The notes below the pieces were generated by a model. The model was not told where the DNA came from. It worked only from the letters and a program-made list of their open reading frames with translations, and did not search any database. The position numbers were made by a program, and so were the translations under genes. A DNA stretch of 64,000 nt from an uncultured cyanobacterium (GTDB taxonomy: Bacteria > Cyanobacteriota > Cyanobacteriia > Pseudanabaenales > Pseudanabaenaceae), in assembly GCA_963703315.1 (NCBI GenBank), contig OY969811.1:4128001-4192000 (forward strand), written 5' to 3'. Shown here piece by piece: positions 43,438-61,140 of this stretch. How positions within the stretch are numbered: the stretch's first letter is position 1; the number at the start of each line of letters is the position of its first letter.

Positions 43438-43527
43438 CAAAGCGATTGCTTCAACCCAAAACTAGAGCTTGTGCCGCCCGCTACGCGGGCGGCACAAGCT
43501 CTAGTTTTAGGTTTACGACTTAGAGTT

Positions 43528-44718: not shown

Positions 44719-47355
44719 ATGCCTAATCATAGTAAAAAAACTAACTCAAGGTCTTCATCCTATCGGTTGATAGCAGCGACATTGACAATGAGTGGGGTGT
44801 CATCTTTACTACCATACCTTGCGATCGCTCAAGTTGTGCCACCAACGCCAGCAGGTGTCCAAATCCTCAACCGTGCATCAGGTACTTATAGAGACCCAAA
44901 TAATCCTAATGACGAGATTAACGCCACTTCCAACACCGTCACCGTTACCGTCGCAGAGGTAGCAGGGATCACCAATGTGCCTGCGGGAATTATCGATGTC
45001 AACGGTGGTAGTGTATCCGTCAACGATGTAATTAACTTTGACTTTTTAGTTACGAATACAGGAAATGCTCCTACCAATATTGTTTTCCCCGCAATTGGTA
45101 ATATTACTACCCAAGGCTTAAACGCTGGTACATTGCAGTATCAATTAGACCTCAACAATGATGGAGATTTTCTTGATGCTGGTGAAGGCTTGCAGACAGG
45201 TACATTTACCACCACCACCCCAATTCCTGCGGGTAGCTCTGTGCGTGTCAGAGTTGTTGGCACAGTAACTGCCACAAACGCAGGTGATACCGTCAGTGTT
45301 CAACTAGGTAATACAGGATTAAATAACAACTCGGCTGGAACTCAAAATCAGCCAGACTCAGGGGCTGAGCCTCCTGCCGCAGGTGGTGAAGGTAGTAATG
45401 CTAATGAGGTTCGTACCGTCAACTTTGGTCCTGATTTACCCGTTAATGGTGAACGTGAAGCTTCAGCAATTCAATCAACGACAGTGGCTACGGCTGTTCG
45501 TAATATTGCCTTAGCCACTGTTCTAAAAACTAGAGCAGCTTACGATGCGGGGGTGGCAAATACAGTAGTAGATGATCGCCTCACCTATCGACTTAATTTA
45601 AGAGTTGCAGGGACATCTCCTGCTCCTGCCCAATTCACTCCAGCTAACCTCGAAGGAACTACAGTTAATGTTGATGGTTCTAGCGCAACTCCCCGCATCT
45701 TAATTTCTGACGTGATTCCCGCAGGAACCAGAATTGATGAAACATTTAATGCGGCTGCAAATTTACCTGCGGGTTGGCAAGCCGTCTATCAATATACTGG
45801 AACCGCCGCCGCTACTACACCTGTCGGCAGCGCTCCTCCAGCAGTAGCATGGTCAACTACCGCACCAACTGCTGGAACTGCACCAAATGTTGTCCGCGTT
45901 GGCTATATTTTTACAGGAACACTTGCTCCGGGCTTTAGTACTGAATTAGTTGCGAATGCTTTCCAATTCAGAGTGGTCACATCAGGATTGCCAGCTACAG
46001 GTGGGGTGATTAATAACATTGCTCAGGTATTTGGGGAAACCGTAGGCGATCCTACCAATCGCGTGGTCTATGACGAATCAGGCGACCAAAATCCCAATAA
46101 CTTTGAAGGAGCTACTCCGCCTGCTCCTGAAGGTACACTATATACACCTGCTACAGATACTGGTGTACCCGATCCTGCGGTACAAAATACTGACCCAAAT
46201 AACAACAACACAGGTACAGGACCTGGCGGGGAAGTCAACATTTTCCCAATTGTGCAAGCAGGTGGCATTCTGAATGGAACCAATAATGTTCCGGGGGCGA
46301 TCGGACGAAGTAATACCAACCAAGATGACTTTACTAACCGTTCTACACCTTTGATTGCCGCAGAATCAGTGCCTGGGCAAACAACTGCGTTTAATCCGCC
46401 ACCAATTATTTTTAACAACACCTTCCAAAACCCACCCAGCAACACGACTAACCTAGATACAGTAAGGTTGCTACCATTACCTCCTAATAATCCCTCTGTA
46501 CCTGGAGTGTCACAACAACCAGATGCAGACATTCCCATTGGTACAAGGGTGACAATTACTTTTGGTACACAGATCGCCGTGTATGACTATACAGCAGTAG
46601 GTGTTTATACCTTTAATGCAGGAGCAAGCTCTGGACTTCCTGTTGGTTCGACAAGCGTATTAGTCAATGGTTTAGCGCCCAACGTGCTGAATAACTATAC
46701 TGTCACGCTTGATTTGCCATCAGGTAATCAGAATACACTTCTATCTGTAGATCGTTTCTTGGCAAATGGAGCCGATCGTGCAGGTTTTAATGTACCGATT
46801 GTTGCTTTTGTGGATAACGACAATAATGGAGCCTTCGTTGCCGCGAATGATCCAATCTATAACATCACAATCGATCGCGGTTACACAGGTTATGTAAGGT
46901 TGCGGAAACAGTCTCAAGTCTTGCAAGGTACTAGTCCGCGCCCTGTCACTCCAGCCACAAATGGAGTGCTTGATGAAACGGCTAAGACCGCAGAACCGGG
47001 CAATATAATTCGCTATGTGATTGAGTACGTCAACTTCTCAACGCCTCTAACTGCGGCTGGTGCTGGTAGCGTAGTTCTAGATGCGGCAACCTTGGTGATT
47101 ACCGAAAATGGCGCAACTGCACCTAATAACTGGGCAGGCGTGTCATTACACTTTAACAATCCCGCCGTAGTTGGTGGATTTGCTCAAAATACTTTTGCTT
47201 CCCAAGGCACTGTTACTTTTAATGGCGCTGCAATCCCAGATCCAGCGACAGGAGCAGCTATCACGACTTATGTAAATAATGTCGGCACAATTCAGCCTGC
47301 AACAAATCCAGCCACCTTCCAAGGGTCTTTCCGTTTCCATCGTCAGTTGCAATAA
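44719..47355 (+). CDS. Secreted DUF11/Ig-like protein; putative major fibre (shaft) subunit
   Basis: Signal peptide (AIA/Q); N-terminal TPAGVQILNRASGTY..SNTVTVTV; internal K..D.IP..N domain; C-terminal LRK..PGNIIRYVIEYVN..FRFHRQLQ-stop. Confidence 0.75.
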   Translation: MPNHSKKTNSRSSSYRLIAATLTMSGVSSLLPYLAIAQVVPPTPAGVQILNRASGTYRDPNNPNDEINATSNTVTVTVAEVAGITNVPAGIIDVNGGSVSVNDVINFDFLVTNTGNAPTNIVFPAIGNITTQGLNAGTLQYQLDLNNDGDFLDAGEGLQTGTFTTTTPIPAGSSVRVRVVGTVTATNAGDTVSVQLGNTGLNNNSAGTQNQPDSGAEPPAAGGEGSNANEVRTVNFGPDLPVNGEREASAIQSTTVATAVRNIALATVLKTRAAYDAGVANTVVDDRLTYRLNLRVAGTSPAPAQFTPANLEGTTVNVDGSSATPRILISDVIPAGTRIDETFNAAANLPAGWQAVYQYTGTAAATTPVGSAPPAVAWSTTAPTAGTAPNVVRVGYIFTGTLAPGFSTELVANAFQFRVVTSGLPATGGVINNIAQVFGETVGDPTNRVVYDESGDQNPNNFEGATPPAPEGTLYTPATDTGVPDPAVQNTDPNNNNTGTGPGGEVNIFPIVQAGGILNGTNNVPGAIGRSNTNQDDFTNRSTPLIAAESVPGQTTAFNPPPIIFNNTFQNPPSNTTNLDTVRLLPLPPNNPSVPGVSQQPDADIPIGTRVTITFGTQIAVYDYTAVGVYTFNAGASSGLPVGSTSVLVNGLAPNVLNNYTVTLDLPSGNQNTLLSVDRFLANGADRAGFNVPIVAFVDNDNNGAFVAANDPIYNITIDRGYTGYVRLRKQSQVLQGTSPRPVTPATNGVLDETAKTAEPGNIIRYVIEYVNFSTPLTAAGAGSVVLDAATLVITENGATAPNNWAGVSLHFNNPAVVGGFAQNTFASQGTVTFNGAAIPDPATGAAITTYVNNVGTIQPATNPATFQGSFRFHRQLQ

Positions 47356-47371
47356 CAATCCTAGTCTATCA

Positions 47372-47407
47372 GGATTTTCCAATGAGCATATACTCATTGG
47401 AAAATCC
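47372..47407 (+). terminator. Strong stem-loop after the first operon gene (partial terminator or mRNA stabiliser)
   Basis: ggattttccaatgag-catata-ctcattggaaaatcc, 15-bp perfect stem without a U tract. Confidence 0.65.
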
Positions 47408-47501
47408 CCAAAGGTTGACTTAGCGAGGCTTTCGCCTTTTCAATTTACTAGACACAATTGAACAAGAATGCAAAACAGTCTAATTAAATTTTATTGAGGT
47501 T

Positions 47502-48095
47502 TTGGAATCAATCATGAAAAAATTTGAAATTAAATCATTGTATCTAGCGGTTGGTGCGGTGGTGCTACCGATGTTGCTATTGTCTACCGCGATCGCTAGC
47601 AATACTAGTTCTACTAATTCTGCTGTTCAAGATCTACGAGTCGCCCAAAAACAGCAGCCTGTAGAATTATTACTAGCAGCCGAAAAGCGTCAAATCAGCC
47701 GTGATGAGTCAGGGAAAGACAAGATTTCTTGGAATGCACTTCCTTCTAATTCGCAAGTGATTCCCGGTAGTGTTTTGCGCTATACAGTAATTGCCAAAAA
47801 CAACACTAGTCGGAATATGCGTAACCTTACGGTAATTCAACCGATTCCTAATGGCATGGTGTACATCATTGCATCGGCAACTGCTTTAAATACATCAGGC
47901 GCTAAATTGGAATTTAGTATTGATGGCGGTAAAACTTTTAGCGTTAACCCAATTATTCGCGTGCGGGGTCGTGATGGCAAGATCGAAGAGCGTCCTGCTC
48001 CTGCTGATGCTTATACCCATGTGCGTTGGAACTTTGGGGAGAGTTTACCAGCAAATTCTCAGTTAACAGTTGCTTATCAGGTTCGCGTTAAGTAG
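47502..48095 (+). CDS. Small secreted single-DUF11-domain protein; ATG 47514 is the probable start
   Basis: Signal peptide; AEK..PGSVLRYTVIAKN..NLTVIQPIPNGMVY..FSIDGGKTF..YTHVRW..VAYQVRVK-stop. Confidence 0.8.
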   Translation: MESIMKKFEIKSLYLAVGAVVLPMLLLSTAIASNTSSTNSAVQDLRVAQKQQPVELLLAAEKRQISRDESGKDKISWNALPSNSQVIPGSVLRYTVIAKNNTSRNMRNLTVIQPIPNGMVYIIASATALNTSGAKLEFSIDGGKTFSVNPIIRVRGRDGKIEERPAPADAYTHVRWNFGESLPANSQLTVAYQVRVK

Positions 48096-48205
48096 TTGAT
48101 GTAATGATGCACTGTGTCAAGCACAGTGCATCATTAACCATGATTAAAACTGATTCATTGATTAAAACTGATTCATTCCGTTTGAATATCTAGAGTGATA
48201 GAACT

Positions 48206-49711
48206 TTGATGAATATGCGATCGCTTAAAATAATAGTAAAGCGATATGCTTTCTTTTTCTGGCTGTGGCTGGGAAGTTTAGCGTTATGTCTTTGTCTGAT
48301 GAATAGTAGTGCTTACGGTCAAGCACGAAATTTTGAAGTGCGTAACCAAGCAAGTGGTAGCTATAACACTATAGGTGTAACTGATTCAGTTCAAACTTCT
48401 TCAACACAAACCAGTATTAATGGCGATCGCCTCATCGATCCTCTAGGTCAGATTCTCGATTGCGGAGGTAATGAGTTTGAGGATTACACTGGGTTTACGG
48501 TGGGATTATATCAAGCAGTTGGTAGCAATGGTGAAATTGGTGCTCCCATTGCTTTACCCCCAACCAATCCGCCAAACACGACTTCGCCGATAGGTATTGC
48601 TCCCAATATTGCCAACATTAATCCCTATGCAATCACTAATGTCGCAGTAAACGCTAGACGTGGTGTATATAACTTTCTGTTAAATACTAGTCAGACAACT
48701 TCAGGAAGTACCTACATCTTAGTTGTTAATCCACCTGCGAGCCTTGCTCTTGGACAGAGGCGCATTCGCATTGTCATTGGCACTCTTAATGGTATTCGTT
48801 TACCCTATACCGCAACAGCCGTAGATGGTAGACCAATTGGAGTGAACGGACTTTTTTCAGTTACTGATTCTGTCGTGGTTAACAATGCTGATGAAAATGC
48901 TTTATCCCTAGTTGCGATGCAACTGAATGCAGCTATATCTGTATGTGAAGCCCGCGAGATTCAAATTATCAAAACAGGCGATCGCGCTGCTGCTGAACCG
49001 GGAGATATTCCTTCCTATCGACTGACGATCAAAAATCTCACCAATACAACATTAAGCAATCTAGTGGCTACAGATTCTCTACCGATCGGATTGCGCTATG
49101 TGCAGAATTCCGCGAGAGCTTCTGTTAATGGCAACTTAGTTCCTGTTGCGGTTCAGGAAAATGGGAATAATTTAATCTTTGCGATCCAAGGACAAATACC
49201 TGCTGGAAAGGTAAGTGCTTTGGTTGCCTATGCGGTCACAGTCACTCCCGATGCCATCAGAGGGACTGGTAGGAATTCGGCTTCAGCCTCTGCCGTCAGA
49301 GTGGACAACAATTACACAGTTCGGGATGGTCCCGCTATTTTTACGATGCGAATTCGTCCTGGCATTGTTACTGATTGCGCTACTTTAATTGGCAGAGTCT
49401 TTGTAGATAAGAATTTTGATGGAGAGCAGCAGGATGGCGAACCGGGAGTTCCCAATGCTGTGGTGTTTATGGACGATGGTAATCGCATTGTTACCGATGC
49501 CAATGGATTATATTCTATTGCCAATGTGATTCCGGGCGATCGCACTGTGGTCTTAGATTTAAGTTCTTTGTCTGGATATACCTTAGCCCCCAACTTGTAC
49601 TTTATCGAACGAAACACTCAGTCTCGGCTGGTGCGTCTATCACCAGGTGGTTTAGCTAGGGCTAATTTTGCGGTAACTCCAACGTTTAGGGGTCTGGCAG
49701 GGCAACAATAA
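48206..49711 (+). CDS. Secreted DUF11 protein with C-terminal SdrD-B-like domain
   Basis: Signal peptide (AYG/Q); VRNQASGSY; IIKTGD..EPGD..YRLTIKN..TDSLPIGLRY..GRNSASA; GRVFVDKNFDGEQQDGEPGVPNA. Confidence 0.8.
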   Translation: MMNMRSLKIIVKRYAFFFWLWLGSLALCLCLMNSSAYGQARNFEVRNQASGSYNTIGVTDSVQTSSTQTSINGDRLIDPLGQILDCGGNEFEDYTGFTVGLYQAVGSNGEIGAPIALPPTNPPNTTSPIGIAPNIANINPYAITNVAVNARRGVYNFLLNTSQTTSGSTYILVVNPPASLALGQRRIRIVIGTLNGIRLPYTATAVDGRPIGVNGLFSVTDSVVVNNADENALSLVAMQLNAAISVCEAREIQIIKTGDRAAAEPGDIPSYRLTIKNLTNTTLSNLVATDSLPIGLRYVQNSARASVNGNLVPVAVQENGNNLIFAIQGQIPAGKVSALVAYAVTVTPDAIRGTGRNSASASAVRVDNNYTVRDGPAIFTMRIRPGIVTDCATLIGRVFVDKNFDGEQQDGEPGVPNAVVFMDDGNRIVTDANGLYSIANVIPGDRTVVLDLSSLSGYTLAPNLYFIERNTQSRLVRLSPGGLARANFAVTPTFRGLAGQQ

Positions 49712-52700
49712 TGAAATATCTATTAAAAACCAATTTAAAGTCTCAATTGTGGTTACATTTACTTGGTTTTATCAGTTTGTGGCTAGGAATGACTGCATCT
49801 AGTGCGATCGCCTCCAACGCCATCAGCGATTCACAAGCATCTTCGCTTGCAACCGATCAACTATCTTTAACGCCAGATTCTCATCATGCCAATGCTGAGC
49901 CTACAGTACAAATCGCCGTCCAAACCACTCAACCAGAAAGTTCATCAAATCAACCACCAAATCAACCACCAAATCAACCACCAAATCAACCAGAGAATAA
50001 TGTAACATCACCGAAATTACCGACTGTAAACAAAGATCAATCTGCTTCGCAAGTCACCATTCTTTTTCCTGTGAACACATCCTTAATGGATGTACCTGCA
50101 ACTGCGGTGATCTTACGCATTCCCGTTGGCAGAGAAGTAGAACTATCAGTTAATGGTAGAAAGGTTAATCCTAATGCGATCGGTCGTTCTGAGGTGGACA
50201 CTAACGCGGGCGTCGTCACCCAAACTTGGTATGGTGTGACCCTAGATGAAGGTGAGAATAAAATTACCGCGAAGTTAGCTGGTAGTGATGCGAGTCAAAG
50301 TGTGATTGTGCGCCTGCGTAGTGCGGCTGCCAAAATTCAGGTCAGTACTCTAGAGTCAAGTATTCCTGCCGATGGTCGTACCACTGCGACAGTGCAGGGT
50401 TTACTGTTGGATGAAAAAGGCGATCGCTCTAATCGGAGTGCTTTTATCACACTCACTACCAGCGAAGGTGAGTTCATTGGCAATGATGCTCAGCCCGATC
50501 AACCCGGTTTTCAGGTAGAAGCAAGAGAAGGTAAATTTTCTGCAACCCTGCGTTCTGGACTCACTTCTGGCAATGTTCGTATTCGCGCTAGTTCCGTCAT
50601 TAATAATCGTGAGATTGAAGCCTTTACCCGAATTCAACTCGAAACTAATCTTCGTCCTTCGATCCTCACAGGAGTGGTTAGCTTACGGATAGGCGCAAGA
50701 GGAACTGATTACTATCGTAGTTTTCGTGATTTTCTGCCCACTGATGGCAATAACTCTAGCAATGTCGATTTTTATGCGGCGGCTTTTGGCACAGGTCGAG
50801 TTGGTGAGTGGTTAATCACAGGAGCATTTAATACCCGTCGGACTCTTAACGAAGATTGCGAAGGTAGAAGCCGTCTATTTCGAGATGTTCAATTTTGCCA
50901 GCAAGTCTATCCTGTCTATGGGGATAGTTCCACCTTAACCACTGAGACTCCTTCTCTAACTAGTGTGTTTTTACGAGCAGAGCGAACTTCTCCCGTTCCC
51001 AGAGCAGGTACTGATTTCTTGATGTGGGGAGATTTTCGCACTGAAGAATTTGCCAGTCGTTCTCAAGAGTTTACAGCATTTACTCGACAGTTAAATGGAT
51101 TGAAGTTTAACTATAATTTTGGCGACTTACAAGCCACAGGGTTGTATAGCAATAATACACGCGGATTTCAGCGCGATATTATTCCTCCCGATGGTACGAG
51201 TGGATTCTTTTTTCTCTCACGGCGGTTAGTCACCCCCGGTAGCGAAAATGTATTTGTGGAATCAGAAGAACTACTCCGTCCTGGTAATATTGTCCGCCGT
51301 GTCAAGCTCGATCGCAGTCAAGACTATGAGATTGATTACGATCGCGGTTCTCTGCAATTTCGTCAGCCAATCCTCCAAACAGATATCGGTACAGGTGGTG
51401 AAACCCTTGTGAGACGTATTATCGTTTCCTACGAATACGACAATGAAGGCGGCACTAGCAACGGTAGTAACAACAATAGTATTTATGCAGCCCAATTGCG
51501 CTATCACTTCAATCGCGAGATTGGGGCGGAAAGCTGGTTAGGAGCTAATTATTTTAAAGAAAATCAAGGAGCGCGGGACTTTCAACTCTATGGAGCTAAT
51601 GCTCTAATTTCCTTTGGCAAAAGTTCTTATATCATTGCCGAATATGCGCGATCGCAAAATAACTCCAGTGATTTACCCGCACCAGTTACAGGTTCGGCTT
51701 TTCGTTTTGAAGCCGTTAGCGAATTTATACAGGGAATTACGGCTAAGGCTTTCTATCGCCAAGCGGATACAGGCTTTGTGAATAATGCCACAATTAGCTT
51801 TGTACCCGGCCAGACAAGGTTGGGCGTTAGTCTGGATGCTAAGCTATCCGATGCTACTACACTCAGGGCAAGCTATGAGCGTGAAGAAAATCGCGGTATT
51901 GCCCCTCAACCATTTACGCTGACTAACTTTCTGGAGCTTAATCCTCAATCTCCAGCAGGAACTCCCGTTGACAATCGACTCAGCACTTTTACTGTGGGCT
52001 TCTTGCAAAAATTGGGGGCAGCCACTGCTGAACTTGATTTTCTGATGCGCGATCGCCAAGATAACTTAAACTCAACATTTTCTGGTGCTTCTAGTCAATT
52101 GCGATCGCGCTTCACCCTGCCAATTCTCGACAACTTAAAATTTATTGCTCAAAATGAGATCAGTCTATCGAATGCTCCTGATACTATTCTGCCCGATCGC
52201 ACAGCCCTAGTTTTAGATTGGCAAGTAATGGATGGTATTAGTTTGCGTCTAGGACAGCAGTGGTTTAGTAGTGGCGTACTTGCGGGTAGCACCTTTACTA
52301 CTGGGGAAGTTGTGGGCAATTACAAACTATTTCCTGACACCACACTTTTAGGACGATACACATTGGTGGGCGGCGCAAATACCACTAGCACCCAAGGAGC
52401 GATCGGCTTCAATCAACGCTGGGTAATTTCCCCCGGACTAAGAGTTGATTTTGGCTATGAAAGGATTTTTGGGAATGACCAAGTTAGAAATTCCGCAGGT
52501 GTTACGCAGGTGTTACAGCCTCTGACCACTGGCTCCAACACTTCTACCCTTGCACTTCAAAGTGGTGATAACTACAATATTGGCTTTGAATATACCGATA
52601 ATCCTGATTTTAAAGCAAGTGCGCGTTATGAATATCGCAACTCTTCGGCAGGGGCAAACTCAGTGATTAATGCCTCTGCGCTCGGTAAGATCACCCCTGC

Positions 52701-54699
52701 GCTCACAGGGCTATTGCGCTATCAGCGATCGGGTATTGCTAACCAAACGATCAATAATTTTGGTGATACCTCTAGTCTACGTTTGGGACTCGCCTATCGC
52801 GATCCTGCCAATGATGCGTTTAATGCCCTATTGCGCTATGAGTATCGCCAGAACCCTAGCATTATTCCTGAAAGCTTTATAGGAGGAATTGGTTCAGGAA
52901 CTGAAGAACAAGTCCTCGCTCTTGAAGCAATCTATTCACCAAACTGGCAATGGGAATTTTACGGAAAATATGCTCTTCGCAATAATACTTCTTACTTGGC
53001 GAAGGACTTAATTGGAACTTCGTCAATTAATTTGGCACAGCTACGAGCGACCTATCGCCTTGGCTATAACTTCGATCTCACGGCTGAAGGTAGAATGATC
53101 AACCAGCCCACAGCAGGATTTAATGAAGTTGGCTTTGTCGCGGAGCTAGGCTATTATGCTACACCCAACTTGCGCCTAGCTGCGGGCTATAGTTCGGGTA
53201 CGGTCAATAACGATCGCGACTTTAGTGGTACACGCTCAGCAGGTGGACTGTATGCAGCAATTACATTTAAACTCAATGAGCTATTTGATGGATTTGGGTT
53301 ACAAAAAATTGCACCACCACAGCAAAAGGAACCACTCGATCCTACTACTCCCATTGAGTTACCTAATGCTAAAAAATCTGGTGTGACAACGGCTGCGCTT
53401 CCTAGCAATATGTCTGAGGTGGTGAGAGTTTCCCTTGCTCAGACTGTGGAATTCCCCACGGCGCAAGTTGATTTATCACCTATTAACCAAGTGGTTTTAG
53501 ATAATTTGGTTACGGTCTTACGCGAATATCCTGCCCTGAATATTGATGTCCAAGGTCGTTTGGCATCGCTCACAGAAGTTACGACTAACAGTCCTGATGC
53601 TCAACGACTTGGTAAGGTGCGAGCGTACCTACTCAAGCGTGGGGTTGATGGTAGTCGGATTACCATGCGATCGCTTGGTGCTATAGAAACTGCCGATAAG
53701 CCTCAAGTTCTACTAGCCCTTGGTGGGACAAGAGAGACTTTTACGCAAATATCGAATCGGATCAAGGAGGGCAATGGCAGTAGCATTCTTCAGAATGTTT
53801 TGCCTAGTGACTTGTCCAATGTATCTTCTAATTCACCCATTGCGGCTGCACCTCTTCGAGTTCAAGCGATTTCACAACGGATTGAGTTTGCTCCTATTGG
53901 TAAAATGACTGATCCGAGCAATGCCAATTTGGATTTGTTAATCAGTCTGATTGTTGATACCCCAGAGGTTGTAATCGAGTTACAAGGTAATCTGGATGGC
54001 TCAGAACTTGAGGTCAATCGCTTGATGGGACTACGCAGTTATCTGCTGCAAAAGGGCATTGCTAGCGATCGCATTTTGATTAGTCCAGCCAATAGCAATA
54101 TTGCTAATAGTGATACCGCTAATAGCATTACACTCACCCTTGCAAACTTGGAAGGATTGCCGATCGCCCAATTGCCTAACGATTCTGCACCTGCGAAACC
54201 GATCGCCCAGCAAGGTAATGGTAATCGCCTGAGCTTAAATCTCCCGAATTTGGAAATAACGCCATCTTCTTTACTCAGTCAGCTTCTCGACTCTGAAAAC
54301 TATAGCCGTCAGGTTTTGGGATTATTGCCTAGTCCACAACTGCTAACGATGCTTTTAGAGCCACAAACTCAACCAACTCTGCTATCAACTAACTTCTCCA
54401 CGCTCCTATCGGGCTTCCCGTCACCTGAAAATGCACCGCGTTGGTCATCGATACCTGCAACCCAAATTTTATCTCTCCTATTGCCTGATCCAAATGCAGC
54501 ACCAGAGAGACAGCCAGACTTGATTGCCGAAGATTCTCAGCGTGACTTGAGTACTCGCCGCTTAGTATCAGCCTTGAACTTCCTGTTAAGTCGCGATCGC
54601 GATGTGCTGACAGCTTTGTTGCGATCGCTCAATGAGTCGCAACCTGAACTACGCGGCGAAGTCATCCGACCTGAATTATTTGAAGAGGGACAACCATGA
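49711..54699 (+). CDS. Large outer-membrane beta-barrel-like protein with N-terminal Ig-like domains and two degenerate OmpA-like C-terminal domains
   Basis: Signal peptide; IPADGRTTATV invasin-like Ig motif; long run of amphipathic beta strands; LDNLV..L..YP...I.VQG..VRAYLLKRGVDGSRI and a second similar unit; TAATG overlap with the upstream gene. Confidence 0.72.
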   Translation: MKYLLKTNLKSQLWLHLLGFISLWLGMTASSAIASNAISDSQASSLATDQLSLTPDSHHANAEPTVQIAVQTTQPESSSNQPPNQPPNQPPNQPENNVTSPKLPTVNKDQSASQVTILFPVNTSLMDVPATAVILRIPVGREVELSVNGRKVNPNAIGRSEVDTNAGVVTQTWYGVTLDEGENKITAKLAGSDASQSVIVRLRSAAAKIQVSTLESSIPADGRTTATVQGLLLDEKGDRSNRSAFITLTTSEGEFIGNDAQPDQPGFQVEAREGKFSATLRSGLTSGNVRIRASSVINNREIEAFTRIQLETNLRPSILTGVVSLRIGARGTDYYRSFRDFLPTDGNNSSNVDFYAAAFGTGRVGEWLITGAFNTRRTLNEDCEGRSRLFRDVQFCQQVYPVYGDSSTLTTETPSLTSVFLRAERTSPVPRAGTDFLMWGDFRTEEFASRSQEFTAFTRQLNGLKFNYNFGDLQATGLYSNNTRGFQRDIIPPDGTSGFFFLSRRLVTPGSENVFVESEELLRPGNIVRRVKLDRSQDYEIDYDRGSLQFRQPILQTDIGTGGETLVRRIIVSYEYDNEGGTSNGSNNNSIYAAQLRYHFNREIGAESWLGANYFKENQGARDFQLYGANALISFGKSSYIIAEYARSQNNSSDLPAPVTGSAFRFEAVSEFIQGITAKAFYRQADTGFVNNATISFVPGQTRLGVSLDAKLSDATTLRASYEREENRGIAPQPFTLTNFLELNPQSPAGTPVDNRLSTFTVGFLQKLGAATAELDFLMRDRQDNLNSTFSGASSQLRSRFTLPILDNLKFIAQNEISLSNAPDTILPDRTALVLDWQVMDGISLRLGQQWFSSGVLAGSTFTTGEVVGNYKLFPDTTLLGRYTLVGGANTTSTQGAIGFNQRWVISPGLRVDFGYERIFGNDQVRNSAGVTQVLQPLTTGSNTSTLALQSGDNYNIGFEYTDNPDFKASARYEYRNSSAGANSVINASALGKITPALTGLLRYQRSGIANQTINNFGDTSSLRLGLAYRDPANDAFNALLRYEYRQNPSIIPESFIGGIGSGTEEQVLALEAIYSPNWQWEFYGKYALRNNTSYLAKDLIGTSSINLAQLRATYRLGYNFDLTAEGRMINQPTAGFNEVGFVAELGYYATPNLRLAAGYSSGTVNNDRDFSGTRSAGGLYAAITFKLNELFDGFGLQKIAPPQQKEPLDPTTPIELPNAKKSGVTTAALPSNMSEVVRVSLAQTVEFPTAQVDLSPINQVVLDNLVTVLREYPALNIDVQGRLASLTEVTTNSPDAQRLGKVRAYLLKRGVDGSRITMRSLGAIETADKPQVLLALGGTRETFTQISNRIKEGNGSSILQNVLPSDLSNVSSNSPIAAAPLRVQAISQRIEFAPIGKMTDPSNANLDLLISLIVDTPEVVIELQGNLDGSELEVNRLMGLRSYLLQKGIASDRILISPANSNIANSDTANSITLTLANLEGLPIAQLPNDSAPAKPIAQQGNGNRLSLNLPNLEITPSSLLSQLLDSENYSRQVLGLLPSPQLLTMLLEPQTQPTLLSTNFSTLLSGFPSPENAPRWSSIPATQILSLLLPDPNAAPERQPDLIAEDSQRDLSTRRLVSALNFLLSRDRDVLTALLRSLNESQPELRGEVIRPELFEEGQP

Positions 54700-54756
54700 A
54701 CCAAAGATTTACCCTCGTTATTTTAATGATGGCAGAGTTTCTAGCATTGTCTCTTA

Positions 54757-57700
54757 ATGAGCGATCGCTTATGTCAACGTAATCATCACCATAAACATCA
54801 CCATAAACATCCTCAGTACAACTTAGAAAGTCGAACATATATGAAAAGCAACGTTAAAGCCATAGTGCAGTCGATATTGCGCTTGGGTCGGAGAATACAG
54901 CGATCTTTTATTTTAATAGGACAACCATTAGGTCAAATTTTCCCGAACCGACAATATCGTTTGAGTGCGGTTTTATTTGGATTGTCTTTTCTCATGGCAT
55001 TGGGATTTTCGCTAACCAATCAACCCAATCCTGCCTATGCAGCAGCAGCAGTATCGAAAGTATTTGCGCCCAACGTAGTTAATCCTGGGGAAAAGTCTCG
55101 AGCCACCATCACAATTACAAATAACAATAATTTTGATCTAACCAATGCAGGTATTACTGATGCCATGCCTAGTGCAATCAAAATTTATAATCCCGCTAGT
55201 GCTACGACCACTTGCGGGGCTGGAATTGTCACAGCAACACCTGGTGGGAGTACTGTAACCTTAAGCAGTGGTACAGTCCCAGCCACCGTAGGAGCAACAA
55301 CTGGTACTTGTACGATTAGCTTTGATGTCTATTCCAATGCCTCTGGAACTACTCAAAATAGTAATATCCCCGCAGGTAGTTTAACGAATACTCAAAATGA
55401 TACTAACGGCAACCTTGACGTTACTTTAACCATTCGTCCCATTACCTACTCTTCCGTAACTGGATCTAAATCCTTCGCACCAGCTTCATTTGCTGCAACG
55501 GGATCTAGTACTGCCACCATTACCCTAACTAACCCTAATGCCGTAGCTATGGATGGGGCAACTTTAATTGATGACCTCAACTTAGTTGGCGCAGGTTTAA
55601 CCGTACAGGGTAGTCCTAGTTCTACTTGTTTAGGAACTAATGGCACTGTCAGTAATACTGCTACTACAGTCACATTAAATAATGGGCGCATTCCTGCTAA
55701 CAGTAGCTGTACAATCACCTTCAGTGTGACGGGGACAATTCCCGCTACCTACACTAATAGGATTCCCGCTAATGCTCTAAGTACGTTTCAAGGGGCAACT
55801 AATAATGCTCAATTCGAACAAAATGTAACTATTACCGAGCCTGTGTCCCTTGCAAAATCATTTTCTGTTAGTCCGATCAAGCAAGGAGATATCAGCCGCG
55901 CCACCGTCACCATCACCAACAACAGCACATCGCAACTTACAAATTTAACTGTCCCTGATAACCTTGCTAGTCCAGGTTCAGGACTACTATATCGCAGTGA
56001 CCTAGCCCCCTCAACAACCTGCACAGGCGGATCAGTAGCTGTTACTGGTGCTTCAGGCACAGCCGCAACGATCACCCTCCAGAATGCAACTCTAAACGCA
56101 GGGGCTTCTTGTGCCTTCAGTTTTGACGTGACCTCAAATAGCCTCGGTAATCGCACTAATACAGTTTTAGCAACTGCTGTTAATAACAATCTAGCTCTCA
56201 GACCAGTAAATAACGGCACGGCAACCCTCGTAGTCAATCCGTTGCTCACAATCAATAAGTCTTACAGCGCAACTGTGCCAAGCAGCAATACCACCGTATC
56301 TGTTGGTGAAACGACTAATCTCTTCATCGACATTACTAATCCCCCTACCAGTAATGTTGATCCCGTCAATATCACTAGTATGACCGATGCTTTTAATACC
56401 TCTGGACGAGTTGTTCTAGTCACTACAGGGGTTGGCGCGGGGACTTCAAGTTGCGGCGGCACAATTACTGGCACAAGTTCCAATGCCTTTACTTTTAGTG
56501 GTGGTGCGATCGCCAGAGGCGCAACCTGTAGACTCACAATTCCCATTCGTGGAAGTACTTCTGGCTCAACCACTAACGACATCCCTGCAAACAATATAAC
56601 CAGTACTCAAGGAGTAAGTAACGTTGCTTCCAACACTCCTACAATTACAGTTAACTCACCTTTCACAGTGCAGAAGGTATACGGAACTCCTGCCCCCAGA
56701 CAGGGTGATCCCACTTTACTGACTATTACCCTCAGAAATCGCAGTACTCTACCAGCAACAAACGTCAGCCTCACTGATACCTTAGACTCACGGTTACGGA
56801 TCGTCTCACCCGCAACACCTGGTTTGATTACTACTGGCGTAGTAACTGCCCCCGCTACCACCTGTGGTGGCATATTAACTGCTCCTCTGAATACTGGCGG
56901 TCCTACAATTTCTCTGACTGGCGGCACTATTCCCGCAGGGACAGCAAGCACTCCCACTTCTTGTACGATCACCTTCTATGTCCAGACTGATGTACTCCCC
57001 GTCGATGCGACAGTCCCACCCCTAGCAACCGCAGGTACATATCGCAACACAATTCCTTTAGCAACGACAACCGCCGACTATGGCAGTGGACCAAGCCCTG
57101 CTGTAGTGGAATCGGCTAACTCCAACCGCGCCGACCTAACACCAACAGGAGCGTTGGATATTAGCAATAAGCAGGTTGCTAACTCTCCCTACACCACTTT
57201 TGTCGGCAACGTTACAACCAACATTAATACTCCTATTGCGGTTCGAATCACTTTACGAAATAGATCAGCAAACTTAAATCTCGCAGGATTAAATTTGACT
57301 GACAGCTTTCCGACCGCAGCCAATGGTGGGGGATTTGTGTTGTATCGACCTGGTGCAGCACCTTTCGAGCCTAGCACTACCTGTAATTACTTGAGTACCC
57401 CCGTATTCACTGGTACTAATGGCGGCACGAGCTTGGCAATGGCATCGGGGGGATTACAGAGTGCCGCTTCTATTGGTGGTAACAGAACTTGTACGATTAC
57501 TTTTTATGTAATCGCTACCCAAGAAGGTGGGACTACAGGGACTGCTTATAACAATACGTTACCCATTGGCAGCGTCAAAGCCACCAACACTAGTGTGGTC
57601 ACAGGTCAAGCCGACAATATTTACAGTACTGATACTGCCCCCGATACGGCTTCAGCTACAGCCAACTCACCGCTAACCATTGGGAAAGCCTTCAGTGTCG

Positions 57701-60700
57701 CCAGTACTTCCATTAACACTAATGCCACAGCTACTATCACCTTAACCAACAACTATGCAGCTATCGCAGTAGCTCCCAACGCTAATAGTTTAACTAATCT
57801 AGGATTCACAGATACTTTACCTGCTAACCTCAGAGCCGTAGCAGGTACTACTGGAGGTACTTGTGTAACAGCCAGAGGCGGTACAGCAGACATCATCAAA
57901 GACGTTGCTCTTAATCAAGATCGCGTCACTTTGACTGGTACAACCCTCCCCCAAGGACAAAGCTGTACAGTCACCTTCACAGTCACATCTAGCAATGTTG
58001 CCGCTTTTACCAATACCATCAACCGCAGCACCGAAGTTACTAACGCTCAATCTTTACCAGCACAGGCAAATGCCACCGCCAATATTAGTTTTATTGCGGG
58101 TCTAAGTGTCACCAAAACCTTTGACAATCTGGCTTCGCAAACTATTCTTGCAGGGCAAACCTCAGTATTGAGAATCGCGATTAATAACACCAGTGGTCAA
58201 AACCTAGCCGCCGTTAGTCTAGATGATAATCTTCCTGCCAATGTCCTGATTGCCTCACCCGCCAATGCTTCGGCTACAGCCGCTTGTGGCTCACCCACCC
58301 TGACCGCAGATCCCAACACCAATCTTGTGCGGATCACCAATGCCTCAATTAACAATACTCAAACCTGTACGGTAGCGGTAACAGTCATTAGCAGCGTCAC
58401 CAGTACTGGCTATGTAAATACTATTCCTGCCAATGCCGTCAATACGGGAGTAGGCGTAACTAATACCAGCCCTGCCACAGCTACCCTAATTGTCACAAGT
58501 CCTCTAAGTATCACAAAATCCTTTAACTCTTCTACGATTGGAGGAAATGGAACTTCTACGGTTACATTGACCATTGCGAACCGATTCCCTGGAGTAGTAG
58601 ATTTCACCAGTACTCCTGTTGGTCTGACAGATACTTGGGCAGCAGCAAACATCCAAATTGCCAATCCTCCCAATGCTTCGACAACTTGTGCAGGTGGTAC
58701 GGTTAATGCGATCGCAGGTCAAAAGACTGTCACCTTAAGCGGTGGACAAATTCTGGCAGGCTCAGTAACTACTCCTAGCACTTGTTTAGTGCAGTTTGAT
58801 GTAGTTGCTACTGCGGCTACTCCCACTCCCTTCACAAATACAATTCCTGCTAACAACCTCAGTACAGTTCAAGGCTTTACCAATAGCACAGCCGCCACAG
58901 CTAACCTCACAATAACTAGCTATAACCTGATTGTTGGTAAATCCTTTAACCCATCGACCGTTGATGGTGGTACACCCACAGTTCTCAAAATTGATATTGA
59001 AAATCCTAGTACTGGTATTCCCCTCACTAACTTGAGATTTGTAGACAATATGCCTGCGGGGATGATTGTTTACTCAGTCCCCAATCCGATTGTGTCCGCG
59101 AACTGTCCAGGGGGTGTAGTCAGCGCGACCCCTGGGGCTGGAAGCTTTAGCTTTAGCGGTGGTTCTTTAGCTCCCAATCAAACCTGTACGATTACACTTA
59201 ATGTGACATCAGTACAGCAAGGAACTTTAACCAACTCGATTCCACCTTCTAACTTTGGTACTAATCAAGGCATTCTCACCAAGGAAGGTATTGGCTATCC
59301 ATCCACAGTGGCGGCTAACTTCTCTGTGTTGCCATCAGCAGAGTTTTCTAAAGAGTTTGATCTACCTAGTATTCCCCCTGGTGGTGTAAGCACACTAAAA
59401 ATTAGTGTGGCTAATACTGCCATTTCGGTCAATCTGACAGGAATGAATTTCCAAGACAATTTACCTACTGGTTTGATTGTTGCTCCTATTCCAAACATTC
59501 AGAATAATGGTTGTAATGGCACGATTACTGCTAATGCTGGCTCTAGCTTGATTCAGTTGGCAGGAGGTTCACTTCTTGCTAGTTCGAGTTGTTCAATTCA
59601 GGTAGATGTTACAGCCGCTAGTTCTGGTATATACAACAACACTATTCCTTCTGGCAATTTACAAACTACTCAGAACATTACCAATAAACAACCTGCAACT
59701 ACTTTATTCCCAGTACAGCCACAGCCCAATATTGCTAAGATTTTTAATCCTAGTACTTCACCTGTTGGTGGAACATCGCAAATGACAATTACAATTACCA
59801 ATCCGCATACGGCTGGTTTAGTAAATGTCAATCTCGATGACAATTTACCAGCTAACTTGGTCATTGCTCCGACAGCAGGAGCGACAACTACCTGCGGTGG
59901 TTCCCTTACTGCTGTAAGTAATACATCCCTAGTTCGATTGACTAACGGTAGTATCACCGCTAATAACAGTTGTACAATTCAAGTGAATGTGACTTCTGGA
60001 GTTGGTGGTAGCTATACAAATACGATTCCAGCTAGGGCTTTAACTTCATCAGTGGTCAATGGTGCGAATCCCCCAATACCAGGTCCTAGCAATGCAAATC
60101 CTGCGAGTGCTACGTTAGTTTTTGGAACAACTTCAATTAGTAAGTCATTTGCTCCTACCACGATTAGTCAGAATGGAATTTCTACGCTGACACTGCAACT
60201 GAACAACAACACTGGGGTGACGTTGACTTTGACAAGCGCCTTGGTGGATACCTTGCCCTCTAATGTATTAGTGGCAGCGACACCTAACATTGGCGGAACT
60301 TGCACAACTGCTAATGTGGTTGCTAATGCTAATGGCAATACCATTACTTACAACAATGGCTCAACAATCCCAAATGGAGGTTGTACGATCTCGGTACAGG
60401 TTACGTCGGCAACTAATGGAGTATATGTAAATACAATACCTGCCAATGGATTGCAGACCACAGGTGGTAACAACCCCTCCTCTGCTACTGCCTCGTTAAC
60501 AGTTCAAGGTGGAGCACCAAACGTGGTTTTGGTAAAACGAATCACGCGCATTAATGGTAATGATTTTAATGTTTACGAGAATGATCCCCTTACCACGAAT
60601 GATGACAATACGAACAACTGGCCGACACCTCTAAGTGATTCCCTAAGGGGTGTAATCTCGCAAACCAATGTTCGTCCGCAAGATGAGGTAGAGTACACGA

Positions 60701-61140
60701 TTTACTATCTCAATATTGGTTTAAATTATGCAGAGAGCTTAAGGATCTGTGACCCTGTGCCTACTAATACCAGCTATATCGCCAATGCTTTTAATGGCTC
60801 TACACCTACCGATGGTGGGTTGCCTGCGGATTTGGGTATTGCTTTACAAACAGGTACAACTGTAGCCGATCGCCGATTCCTCACGGGGATAAATGATGGC
60901 GATCGCGGTCGATATTACGATCCTCTATTGAGTGAAGTACCCGCAGGATTACCTCCAGAGCGCTGTGTTGATCCGAACAATACATCGGTGGCGATCTCTA
61001 GCAATCCCAATGGCATCGTGGCAGTTAATGTCACACGTACTACAGGTACGCCAACTTTTCCCTCGGTTCCCAATGCCACAGGTGCAGGTGTTCCACCTAG
61101 TTCCTATGGATTTGTGAGATTTAGAGTACGAGTACGTTAG
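54757..61140 (+). CDS. Giant secreted adhesin-like protein: 13 disulfide-containing DUF11-like repeats plus a distinct terminal domain; start may be 54841
   Basis: Signal cleavage PAYA/AAA; repeats K.F..G..T.TITN..D.LP..C..C...V..NTIP; last domain LVKRIT..YTIYYLN..ICDPVP..YGFVRFRVRVR-stop. Confidence 0.8.
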   Translation: MSDRLCQRNHHHKHHHKHPQYNLESRTYMKSNVKAIVQSILRLGRRIQRSFILIGQPLGQIFPNRQYRLSAVLFGLSFLMALGFSLTNQPNPAYAAAAVSKVFAPNVVNPGEKSRATITITNNNNFDLTNAGITDAMPSAIKIYNPASATTTCGAGIVTATPGGSTVTLSSGTVPATVGATTGTCTISFDVYSNASGTTQNSNIPAGSLTNTQNDTNGNLDVTLTIRPITYSSVTGSKSFAPASFAATGSSTATITLTNPNAVAMDGATLIDDLNLVGAGLTVQGSPSSTCLGTNGTVSNTATTVTLNNGRIPANSSCTITFSVTGTIPATYTNRIPANALSTFQGATNNAQFEQNVTITEPVSLAKSFSVSPIKQGDISRATVTITNNSTSQLTNLTVPDNLASPGSGLLYRSDLAPSTTCTGGSVAVTGASGTAATITLQNATLNAGASCAFSFDVTSNSLGNRTNTVLATAVNNNLALRPVNNGTATLVVNPLLTINKSYSATVPSSNTTVSVGETTNLFIDITNPPTSNVDPVNITSMTDAFNTSGRVVLVTTGVGAGTSSCGGTITGTSSNAFTFSGGAIARGATCRLTIPIRGSTSGSTTNDIPANNITSTQGVSNVASNTPTITVNSPFTVQKVYGTPAPRQGDPTLLTITLRNRSTLPATNVSLTDTLDSRLRIVSPATPGLITTGVVTAPATTCGGILTAPLNTGGPTISLTGGTIPAGTASTPTSCTITFYVQTDVLPVDATVPPLATAGTYRNTIPLATTTADYGSGPSPAVVESANSNRADLTPTGALDISNKQVANSPYTTFVGNVTTNINTPIAVRITLRNRSANLNLAGLNLTDSFPTAANGGGFVLYRPGAAPFEPSTTCNYLSTPVFTGTNGGTSLAMASGGLQSAASIGGNRTCTITFYVIATQEGGTTGTAYNNTLPIGSVKATNTSVVTGQADNIYSTDTAPDTASATANSPLTIGKAFSVASTSINTNATATITLTNNYAAIAVAPNANSLTNLGFTDTLPANLRAVAGTTGGTCVTARGGTADIIKDVALNQDRVTLTGTTLPQGQSCTVTFTVTSSNVAAFTNTINRSTEVTNAQSLPAQANATANISFIAGLSVTKTFDNLASQTILAGQTSVLRIAINNTSGQNLAAVSLDDNLPANVLIASPANASATAACGSPTLTADPNTNLVRITNASINNTQTCTVAVTVISSVTSTGYVNTIPANAVNTGVGVTNTSPATATLIVTSPLSITKSFNSSTIGGNGTSTVTLTIANRFPGVVDFTSTPVGLTDTWAAANIQIANPPNASTTCAGGTVNAIAGQKTVTLSGGQILAGSVTTPSTCLVQFDVVATAATPTPFTNTIPANNLSTVQGFTNSTAATANLTITSYNLIVGKSFNPSTVDGGTPTVLKIDIENPSTGIPLTNLRFVDNMPAGMIVYSVPNPIVSANCPGGVVSATPGAGSFSFSGGSLAPNQTCTITLNVTSVQQGTLTNSIPPSNFGTNQGILTKEGIGYPSTVAANFSVLPSAEFSKEFDLPSIPPGGVSTLKISVANTAISVNLTGMNFQDNLPTGLIVAPIPNIQNNGCNGTITANAGSSLIQLAGGSLLASSSCSIQVDVTAASSGIYNNTIPSGNLQTTQNITNKQPATTLFPVQPQPNIAKIFNPSTSPVGGTSQMTITITNPHTAGLVNVNLDDNLPANLVIAPTAGATTTCGGSLTAVSNTSLVRLTNGSITANNSCTIQVNVTSGVGGSYTNTIPARALTSSVVNGANPPIPGPSNANPASATLVFGTTSISKSFAPTTISQNGISTLTLQLNNNTGVTLTLTSALVDTLPSNVLVAATPNIGGTCTTANVVANANGNTITYNNGSTIPNGGCTISVQVTSATNGVYVNTIPANGLQTTGGNNPSSATASLTVQGGAPNVVLVKRITRINGNDFNVYENDPLTTNDDNTNNWPTPLSDSLRGVISQTNVRPQDEVEYTIYYLNIGLNYAESLRICDPVPTNTSYIANAFNGSTPTDGGLPADLGIALQTGTTVADRRFLTGINDGDRGRYYDPLLSEVPAGLPPERCVDPNNTSVAISSNPNGIVAVNVTRTTGTPTFPSVPNATGAGVPPSSYGFVRFRVRVR

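Follow-up and report, generated by a model that had tools for sequence, protein, structure and literature searches.

How might the large surface proteins of a bacterium with two membranes be joined to one another and held at the outer membrane? The question is raised by a five-gene operon on a stretch of 64,000 nucleotides, referred to here as the window, from an uncultured cyanobacterium of the family Pseudanabaenaceae (NCBI GenBank assembly GCA_963703315.1, contig OY969811.1, positions 4,128,001 to 4,192,000 of the forward strand). The operon, established from a list of open reading frames (ORFs) and their translations, consists of five plus strand genes, called A to E, at window positions 44719-61140; their products of 878, 197, 501, 1662 and 2127 amino acids (aa) lie where a preliminary description of this DNA had placed them. 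That description had noticed that three of the proteins end with a truncated immunoglobulin (Ig)-like domain, the acceptor, and that two begin with a hairpin resembling the missing part, the donor. We lean towards the view that these parts belong together and that the products of the operon form a modular stalk or fibre on the cell surface, assembled head-to-tail through a split CLIPPER (DUF11) domain, with the chain order, the role for B and the Lys-Asn lock proposed below.

Three proteins stop before the last hairpin of their end domain

The intact form of the domain can be read from E (54757..61140, plus strand, 2127 aa), which is made of a long N-terminal leader, 13 complete DUF7933 repeats (residues 96-1921; 13 stretches, E-value 5.8e-196, 640 bits; DUF11, 81.3 bits) and a truncated acceptor end domain, and which has no donor hairpin. 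The order of elements within the repeats, first a Lys, then the motif D.LP, a C.V.F.V strand and finally a yTNTIP..A.L.V hairpin, agrees with that first proposed (Lys, D.LP, F/V.V strand, Asn hairpin) in all 13, and the residues of the isopeptide triad are present in cis almost throughout (Lys 12/13, Asp 13/13, Asn 13/13). The end domain of E (60499..61137, plus strand, residues 1915-2127) contains Lys1927, Cys1998 and Asp1999 and ends with ..YGFVRFRVRVR; it matches Pfam DUF11 over profile positions 8-65 with an E-value of 0.0013. Conservation was counted in the best 80 of 565 relatives of the barrel protein D, obtained by a profile search of genome contigs. In these loci the three residues are invariant (71/71), and every one of the 71 adhesin end domains terminates 5-6 residues past the motif G[FY].RF.

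Gene A (44719..47355, plus strand, 878 aa) encodes a signal peptide, a donor hairpin, a series of Ig-like domains that includes DUF7925 (Pfam, residues 265-462, E-value 2.3e-57, 194 bits) and a truncated acceptor end domain, and its product is the only one of the operon to carry both domain halves. The end domain (46861..47352, plus strand) has Lys730 and Glu796, corresponding to K693 and E759 of the mature protein, both invariant in the family (73/73), and ends with ..GSFRFHRQLQ. Likewise, 71 of the 73 relatives stop at a ..F.F.R.. strand (e.g. ..TFTFQRKVN), the exceptions, in loci L049 and L081, having tails of 10-12 residues.

The small protein B (47502..48095, plus strand, 197 aa, the ATG at 47514 being the likelier start) consists of a signal peptide and one truncated DUF11-like acceptor domain, which scores 23.2 bits against DUF11, just below the cut-off, and 27.4 bits against TIGR01451, above the cut-off of 24. 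Its Lys62 is present, with Gln113 at the position of the catalytic Asp, and it ends with ..VAYQVRVK. The Gln is found in 75/76 members of the B family and the Lys is less conserved (65/76); 75/76 C-termini fit the pattern ..Y.V.V[RK]-end (e.g. ..YQTQVR), and the one that the regular expression misses ends ..AYDVIVR at the same place. What B lacks is evident from gene C (48206..49711, plus strand, 501 aa; DUF11, 32.1 bits), which encodes a signal peptide, a donor hairpin, middle domains, a complete DUF11 domain (residues 252-370, triad K256, D290, N357), an SdrD_B-like domain (397-460) and a tail with the motif NFAVTP, and no acceptor domain. In the intact domain of C a strand ..LVAYAVTV is followed by a loop and then by GRNSASASA..IFTMRI; B stops at ..LTVAYQVRVK. 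A local hidden Markov model built on the intact C-family domain matches B significantly in 73/75 cases.

Thus A, B and E all stop at the strand preceding the Asn hairpin, as had been suggested for the 878-, 197- and 2127-aa proteins, and the end domains are DUF11/CLIPPER-like with Lys and acid invariant in the A and E families, so that the designation of these proteins as DUF11-type subunits stands. Truncated or mis-called genes were considered as an artefact and rejected, the same stops being found in 71-76 orthologues per family; the pattern also goes well past what chance could produce.

Beyond these loci, the E end-domain profile was compared with 1.84 billion representative proteins, giving 6925 matches at an E-value of 0.001 or less and 1159 at 1e-30 or less. 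Among the 150 best matches listed, 114 cover the whole end-domain profile, and in all 114 the match ends no more than 5 residues from the C-terminus of the protein; the remaining 36 are giant repeat proteins that match the generic repeat core only. In its own genome the adhesin end domain occurs just twice, in this operon and in a paralogous locus.

Two proteins begin with an Asn hairpin

The hairpins of A and C are placed directly after the signal peptides. That of A (44854..44952, plus strand, residues 46-78) reads GVQILNRASGTY..SNTVTVTV and contains Asn51 (column N14 in mature-protein numbering), which is invariant (73/73); that of C (48323..48424, plus strand, residues 40-73) reads ARNFEVRNQASGSY..SSTQTSI and contains Asn47, which is the sole invariant column (76/76) of an alignment whose columns average 35% identity. 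Conservation of this N-terminal Asn had been singled out beforehand as a point on which the idea of orphan hairpins could fail; the residue is invariant in both hairpin families. The N-terminus of C offers ..VRNQASGSY..STQTSI, the piece that the domain of B lacks. Judged from the alignments, the triad is invariant yet divided between chains: none of the last domains of A, B and E holds it within one chain, and the Asn lies on A and C.

A scan of the genome with a loose hairpin pattern matched 17/3153 ORFs. Fourteen of these are unrelated proteins, and the three true post-signal-peptide hairpins all belong to this operon or to the paralogous locus.

In A the hairpin enters the first strand of the next domain (AEVAGITNV) without a linker (..TVTVAEVAGITNV), as at the junction of tandem repeats, so that a hairpin inserted in trans would be expected to continue the string of beads. 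The AlphaFold model of A (predicted local distance difference test, pLDDT, 79.2; predicted template modelling score, pTM, 0.57) retrieved by Foldseek only generic strings of Ig domains (integrin alpha, PrgB, antigen I/II), and look-ups in the ESM Atlas returned only DUF11-like clusters from Cyanobacteriota and Pseudomonadota, which serve as leads only.

The hairpin of C is predicted to enter the end domain of E

The E-C pair was picked for complex prediction because it is present in every locus type. The end domain of E (213 residues, alignment of 71 rows) and the hairpin of C (39 residues, 75 rows) gave a score of 0.83 (0.83, 0.87 and 0.73 in the separate runs), the best of three controls reaching 0.02. 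The mark that this pair passed is attained by 116/157 solved complexes and by 2/215 mismatched pairs, a calibration that is only rough because the alignments were built by the authors. Between runs the contacts agreed by at least 86%, with a partner pLDDT of at least 65.

The interface involves residues 9-15 (with Lys13) and 76-86 (with Asp85) of the end domain, and residues 6-18 (with Asn8) and 22-36 of the hairpin. The contacts of lowest predicted error set hairpin residues 10-14 between residues 78-85 and residues 9-13, which would place the first donor strand beside both the Lys strand and the Asp strand. In this prediction, therefore, the hairpin of C inserts into the end domain of E and Lys, Asp and Asn are all part of the interface.

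Gene order is fixed and a smaller version of the locus exists

The best 80 loci are all cyanobacterial (Pseudanabaena, Nostoc, Leptolyngbya, Stenomitos, Calothrix, Tolypothrix and others). ORF calling and BLAST revealed a fixed gene order, A-B-C-barrel-(beta-helix/OmpA protein)-adhesin, with A in 72 loci, B in 74, C in 74, the barrel in 80 and the beta-helix/OmpA protein in 16. Adhesins with an E-type end domain number 69 genes in 61/80 loci, one to three per locus. Loci short of a member often lie at contig ends. Among 301 sampled genomes of the phylum the barrel is found in 44, and in 33/134 genera, including weaker matches in another class.

The same genome contains a paralogous minimal locus outside the window (L090, G000:C1:3370898-3381179, minus strand). 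It is composed of a C-like base of 520 aa, whose hairpin reads ISNTATGTYEDP, a barrel of 1208 aa, a beta-helix/OmpA protein of 706 aa with a NosD-like beta-helix, and an adhesin of 955 aa that ends ..YGFVRFAVTVN; the base and barrel genes overlap by their start and stop codons, and there is neither an A-like nor a B-like gene. Eight further loci, of which six are second copies, were examined in genomes elsewhere in the phylum, and five of the eight are of the minimal type. The short bases of minimal loci (~310-360 aa) have a signal peptide, a hairpin, an intact DUF11 domain and an SdrD_B-like domain, and the hairpin motif N.A is present in 4/4 of those with a readable N-terminus. Since minimal loci do without A and B, the core of the system is base, barrel and adhesin, with the C-to-E joint at its centre, and A and B are an accessory module.

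Subunits with two ends are not confined to A. Four Nostoc adhesin genes (L033 16205-18340; L034 6932-10783; L052 18030-20843; L058 17827-19962) combine an E-type end domain with an A-type N-terminus, i.e. a signal peptide and a hairpin ..VIDNQATGSF..SNTVKVTVAEVAGI.

Some variation in the surroundings of the barrel gene was also recorded. The closest Pseudanabaena relatives (L010-L017) have a beta-helix/OmpA gene of ~690-700 aa between barrel and adhesin; in the window the gap between the two genes is just 57 bases (54699-54757), and the barrels here and in L010-L017 carry fused OmpA-like regions. Locus L099 (G130:C6:13000-32900) comes from a low-GC organism in another class of the phylum and has the appearance of a split or diverged cluster. 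Its barrel is spread over two frames, a fragment resembles C, and there are proteins with the C-termini ..GEVRFRVQIN and ..GEVSFSVMIQ; the ORFs look fragmented.

A very large barrel is encoded by a gene that overlaps gene C

Genes C and D overlap by a single base, the stop of one running into the start of the other (TAATG), which fits the coupling of the 501-aa gene to the barrel gene proposed in the preliminary description. D (49711..54699, plus strand, 1662 aa) comprises a signal peptide, PPNQ repeats, two Ig-like domains (~111-314), a barrel (~315-1188), two OmpA-like regions (1233-1329 and ~1398-1455) and a low-complexity tail. In Pfam and NCBIfam it finds only sub-threshold Invasin_D3 (24.4, cut-off 33) and OmpA-like matches, the OmpA-like part giving a PorE-like match of 30.2 bits for a cut-off of 600. 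Relatives of D are often labelled "TonB-dependent receptor" in databases, a label that no Pfam or NCBIfam family backs for D. The OmpA-like module is fused to the barrel in this copy and encoded by a separate gene in other loci.

D is strongly conserved and unusually large among outer-membrane proteins. It is 90% identical to proteins of Pseudanabaena assemblies, and its region 330-1200 retains 57-58% identity between cyanobacterial orders; its barrel profile matched 1389 proteins at an E-value of 0.001 or less among 7999 candidates scored and none of the PDB sequences. The AlphaFold model of residues 105-1210 has two Ig-like domains followed by ~38 strand elements (model residues 214-1084). 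The Ig-like domains are of the intimin/invasin type, aligning with intimin D00-D1 at a Z-score of 12.3 and a root-mean-square deviation of 2.3 over 95 residues, and with intimin/invasin structures generally at 11-12. For the barrel, VIA-align returned porins at a Z-score of ~14, SprA at 12.1 (641 residues), TamA, PapC at 11.0 and FimD at 9.8, with no standout in an overall range of 10-15, and Foldseek returned MtrB, Deinococcus SlpA, SprA and LptD at template modelling scores of ~0.2. If the number of strands is even, the Ig-like and OmpA-like parts of D would both be periplasmic, as in ushers.

Of the usher-like pore in the preliminary description, the very large barrel is borne out. Homology is not: neither D nor the genome has a match to the Usher families (PF00577, PapC_N, PapC_C), in a search whose control was positive in E. 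coli, and PapC and FimD rank below porins, so that "usher-like" is an analogy.

Three further features of these proteins may be mentioned. The C family has a conserved tail, ..RLVRL.PG..ARANFAVTP.., ~10 residues from the stop (window 49590-49708, C residues ~463-501), which is retained even in the short bases of minimal loci and may be a docking site for the barrel or for the Ig-like domains of D. Close to the N-terminus of D lies a tandem repeat of PPNQ (window 49930-50010, residues ~74-100). After the OmpA-like regions D has a tail of 200 residues rich in Leu, Ser and Pro (window 54080-54696, residues ~1460-1662), which has no family match and is not present in the 1200-1300-aa barrels of Nostoc.

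Proposed mechanism

In the mechanism that we propose, the last domain of E and of A, with its Lys strand and catalytic Asp or Glu, ends before its final two strands, and these, together with the Asn, would be supplied by the N-termini of A and C. Insertion of the hairpin would complete the sandwich and recreate an ordinary tandem-domain junction, which would probably be locked by an autocatalytic Lys-Asn isopeptide bond. In the chain, E would be distal (acceptor only), A would be an optional extender present in one or several copies, and C would be proximal (donor only). C would be produced together with D, the giant outer-membrane barrel with putatively periplasmic Ig-like domains and OmpA-like domains of the peptidoglycan-binding kind; D would hold the base and may double as the export pore. 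The preliminary description had cast the 2127-, 878- and 501-aa proteins as tip, shaft and base of a fibre: their acceptor-only, two-ended and donor-only constitutions were indeed found, and the roles in a fibre are supported only in part.

The function of B would be of another kind. Its Gln at the acid position is analogous to that of engineered catchers in which the acid has been changed to Gln, so that B would be expected to bind hairpins but to form no bond with them. B most likely binds donor hairpins reversibly, perhaps as a periplasmic cap against premature joining, or else as an end cap. Its earlier assignment as a chaperone does not hold in the PapD-like sense: a truncated acceptor with Gln in 75/76 relatives could take up donor hairpins only, the reverse of PapD.

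Several observations weigh against the assembly of a fibre or stalk through split domains. The whole case is known from sequence and prediction. In the predicted complex, the best-supported contacts of Lys13 and Asp85 are hairpin residues 10-11, not Asn8, and the passing score may stem from intact CnaA/CLIPPER folds that the model had learnt. When an unrelated protein took the place of the hairpin, in two controls, the end domain of E still had a pLDDT of 82-85, and it may thus have a stable fold of its own; the hairpin of A, modelled within the monomer, has a pLDDT of 67-73, which would allow packing in cis. Profile comparisons recover the relationship incompletely: with hhalign the 13 intact repeats match the end domain only in the core up to the Asp (E-value 0.047) and do not match the hairpin, Pfam at E-values up to 10 finds no family in the end domain of A or in either hairpin, and the model of the intact C-family domain gives no hairpin match below an E-value of 0.01. 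The hairpins are too short and divergent for these tests, which for that reason neither support nor refute the split. Finally, the model of the D barrel is only moderately confident (pLDDT 70.6, pTM 0.46), and the barrel is without detectable kinship to any translocon.

These reservations leave room for other explanations of the same termini. The most serious is that the split domain works like a snap fastener, tethering single adhesins as an E-C heterodimer or an E-A-C heterotrimer, and that A never self-polymerises; A might instead fold back on its own hairpin in cis, or be carried as a second cargo. We regard this as unlikely overall, if worth keeping in view. It would account for minimal loci that hold base, barrel and adhesin only, and E with C is the one pair submitted to prediction, and it passed. 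Moreover, A is a multidomain protein of 840 residues, unlike the small pilins that typically form shafts, E by itself is already a stalk of 13 repeats, and the pLDDT of the A hairpin is compatible with packing in cis. A permanently single unit is, however, hard to reconcile with the presence of both halves on A in 72/80 loci and with the additional two-ended subunits of multi-adhesin loci, and closure in cis would bend a multidomain rod into a ring, as the hairpin of A joins its first domain without a linker. B argues in the same direction, because a putative non-crosslinking hairpin binder that co-occurs with A is most sensible where uncontrolled joining is a risk.

It has also to be asked whether the termini interact at all. 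The C-terminal domains could be export or recognition signals for the barrel, in the manner of type IX secretion, with the N-terminal hairpins unrelated to them. Passengers of great diversity carry the end domain, which is C-terminal in each of the 114 full matches among the 150 best listed, one barrel can serve several adhesin genes, and SprA, the type IX translocon, provides the longest barrel alignment (641 residues, Z-score 12.1). This explanation, which is not mutually exclusive with a split domain, seems to us improbable, as it leaves unexplained why a CLIPPER domain should be cut exactly ahead of its Asn hairpin, why Lys and Asp should be invariant and two partner proteins open with an invariant-Asn hairpin, and why E and C are predicted to fit; apart from the weak PorE-like match in D (30.2 bits, cut-off 600), no type IX family was found. 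Still less probable, in our estimation very much so, is that these are ordinary fibrillar adhesins next to an unrelated large outer-membrane protein, their termini being family quirks with no interaction in trans. DUF11-type repeat proteins are indeed common adhesin stalks, some DUF11 domains have no triad according to the accessible part of a recent survey (PMC12617251), and sequence profiles give the hairpins weak support. Against this stand the strictly conserved gene order and the C/D gene overlap, termini that are complementary and invariant across families, the restriction of donors and acceptors to these loci within the genome, and a complex prediction that passed where controls gave 0.00-0.02. 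Both the sorting-signal and the no-interaction explanations account for much less than a split domain that builds a fibre or an anchor.

Relation to known systems

In chaperone-usher pili the tip (FimH or PapG), the rod (FimA or PapA) and the terminator (PapH) are assembled with the help of a chaperone (FimC or PapD) and an usher (FimD or PapC). The accessible part of one account describes how an incomplete Ig-like fold is completed in these pili by an N-terminal stretch of the subunit that follows on the proximal side (PMC11821415). In the operon, such completion of a fold by the N-terminus of a neighbour is represented by the E-C prediction only, with a two-strand hairpin as donor. Further likenesses, on the proposed mechanism, are a tip that is acceptor only, middle subunits with both halves and a donor-competent terminator, and assembly at an outer-membrane barrel with periplasmic Ig-like domains, using neither ATP nor sortase. 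The differences are considerable: the operon would donate two strands as a hairpin, not one, and the junction holds an isopeptide triad; B, as an acceptor, would take up donors, the chaperone PapD by contrast donating a strand itself, and no match to the PapD family was found among ten proteins scanned in and beside the operon; and the D barrel, of ~870 residues with ~38 predicted strand elements and OmpA-like domains, has PapC and FimD ranked below porins.

The proposed chemistry has a counterpart in the BsaA fibres of Clostridium perfringens, members of the TasA family, for which the accessible text of the report uses the term "donor-strand exchange and lock" (PMC11580942). There, as far as that text goes, the donor Asn is bonded to the acceptor Lys under catalysis by an acceptor acid (N35, K74, E56), and Ala variants abolished oligomers (PMC11580942). 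As in the proposed joints, an N-terminal donor segment enters the sheet of the next subunit, the Asn belonging to the donor and the Lys and acid to the acceptor; in our alignments this division is conserved as invariant columns. BsaA, however, is a homopolymer of TasA fold in a Gram-positive matrix, with no outer membrane or barrel; the operon products are CLIPPER/CnaA-like and heteromeric, and none of the five matches the TasA or camelysin families. Thread filaments of Sulfolobus acidocaldarius likewise combine donor-strand complementation with inter-subunit isopeptide bonds and are very stable, according to the accessible parts of two reports (PMC9715654; 10.1101/2022.04.26.489512). They differ, on the same showing, in being archaeal, in having a single small subunit and in lacking an outer membrane.

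The domain families themselves were treated in a 2025 survey of intramolecular isopeptide domains, the accessible part of which renamed DUF11 (PF01345) "CLIPPER", created the families DUF7933 and DUF7925, the latter seeded from a Nostoc protein of the A family, and presented a CLIPPER crystal structure (9IFR) with Lys715, Asp748 and Asn806 (PMC12617251). That part contains no mention of "split" or "truncated" domains (PMC12617251). To the same families belong the E repeats, 13 in number, and the domains inside A and C, all with the triad in cis. The published survey covers bonds within a chain, whereas in the operon the terminal copy is split over two chains and the bond would be intermolecular.

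A split of this sort has been engineered. In SpyTag/SpyCatcher, derived from CnaB2, the docked peptide is the missing strand and bonds spontaneously, and a variant with the acid changed to Gln binds without reacting. The likeness lies in the truncated Ig-like domain with a partner residue and an acid, and the acid-to-Gln variant resembles B. SpyTag/SpyCatcher differs from the operon in being man-made, of CnaB type, with one donated strand and a Lys-Asp bond; the operon would represent a natural split of CnaA/CLIPPER type with a two-strand donor.

Other ways of attaching surface proteins find no counterpart in the operon. No sortase family has a match in the genome, which is 99.67% complete, the control being positive in Bacillus, Corynebacterium and Lactococcus, and none of the C-termini of the five proteins has an LPXTG motif with a membrane anchor, in line with the sortase independence claimed at the outset. 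The C-terminal domain family of type IX secretion has no match in E or A, and the similarity of the D fold to SprA is of a generic kind. Inverse autotransporters (intimin and invasin) have a 12-strand barrel followed by a C-terminal passenger of Big domains; the Ig-like domains of D, in contrast, are N-terminal to a far larger barrel. A full-text literature search, which covered sources other than bioRxiv supplements and subscription journals, retrieved no paper on a split DUF11 domain or on this operon, and the accessible part of a 2026 review of bacterial surfaces mentions neither "DUF11" nor "CLIPPER".

The resemblance to chaperone-usher pili, then, concerns polarity and energy-free working and would be one of analogy, and the resemblance to BsaA concerns chemistry. 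The families of the operon are unrelated to any described pilus machinery, and the kind of structure to which they would belong is that of surface fibres completed by donor strands and possibly locked by isopeptide bonds.

Significance

If the joints form as predicted, bacteria with two membranes would have a further way of building surface fibres, one that unites the logic of chaperone-usher pili with the chemistry of Gram-positive pilins, using unrelated proteins and no sortase. Split isopeptide domains of this sort would be a natural protein "superglue" and a source of orthogonal tag-catcher pairs, along with a natural non-reactive catcher. We suggest tentatively, and with less assurance than for the head-to-tail stalk or fibre itself, that the operon represents a new class of pilus or adhesin assembly in two-membrane bacteria, widespread in cyanobacteria. 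Its subunits would be natural tag-catcher pairs derived from a divided CLIPPER domain, polymerising through their hairpins and locking covalently without an enzyme; the giant barrel would both extrude and anchor them, and B, as a dead catcher, would silence donor hairpins in the periplasm. Its occurrence in 44/301 genomes and its highly variable passengers make it a candidate determinant of adhesion and of mat or aggregate formation in filamentous cyanobacteria.

Genomic setting and further observations

The host genome is complete (4.57 Mb). The operon is flanked by a divergent PAP-fibrillin gene on one side and by a gene for a glycosyl-phosphate transferase of the WecA/MraY family on the other. 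Scans for regulatory signals were of little help: promoter-like sites were rarer than in shuffled sequences (26 vs 33.1), and no convincing terminator was found downstream of gene E. In one freshwater RNA library, contigs identical to pieces of all five genes were present at a depth of 2-9, with a 0.10 share of words; as evidence for expression this is weak, because DNA carry-over is possible and the contigs give neither strand nor level, and stretches of the operon that they do not cover carry no meaning.

A weak stem-loop of 5 pairs only, followed by a T-rich stretch, lies 70 bases past the stop codon of gene A (window 47423-47438). It could act as an attenuator separating A from the genes that follow, or may be due to chance. 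Upstream of the operon, between the convergent glycosyltransferase and PAP-fibrillin genes, window 43462-43504 contains a perfect inverted repeat of 20 base pairs with 14 G-C pairs, a 3-base loop and T-runs on both strands, resembling a bidirectional terminator.

Gene E itself has two peculiarities. Residues 1-95 (window 54757-55041) include a His/Lys-rich run, HHHKHHHKH, within the long leader that precedes the hydrophobic signal segment; translation may really begin at Met29, and unusually long N-terminal regions are seen in other adhesins of the family and in the 955-aa paralogue as well. Exactly across the gene (window 54000-60000) the GC skew falls to -0.14 to -0.18, for which the simplest reading is a coding bias of the Thr/Asn/Ser/Ala-rich repeats rather than a replication signal.

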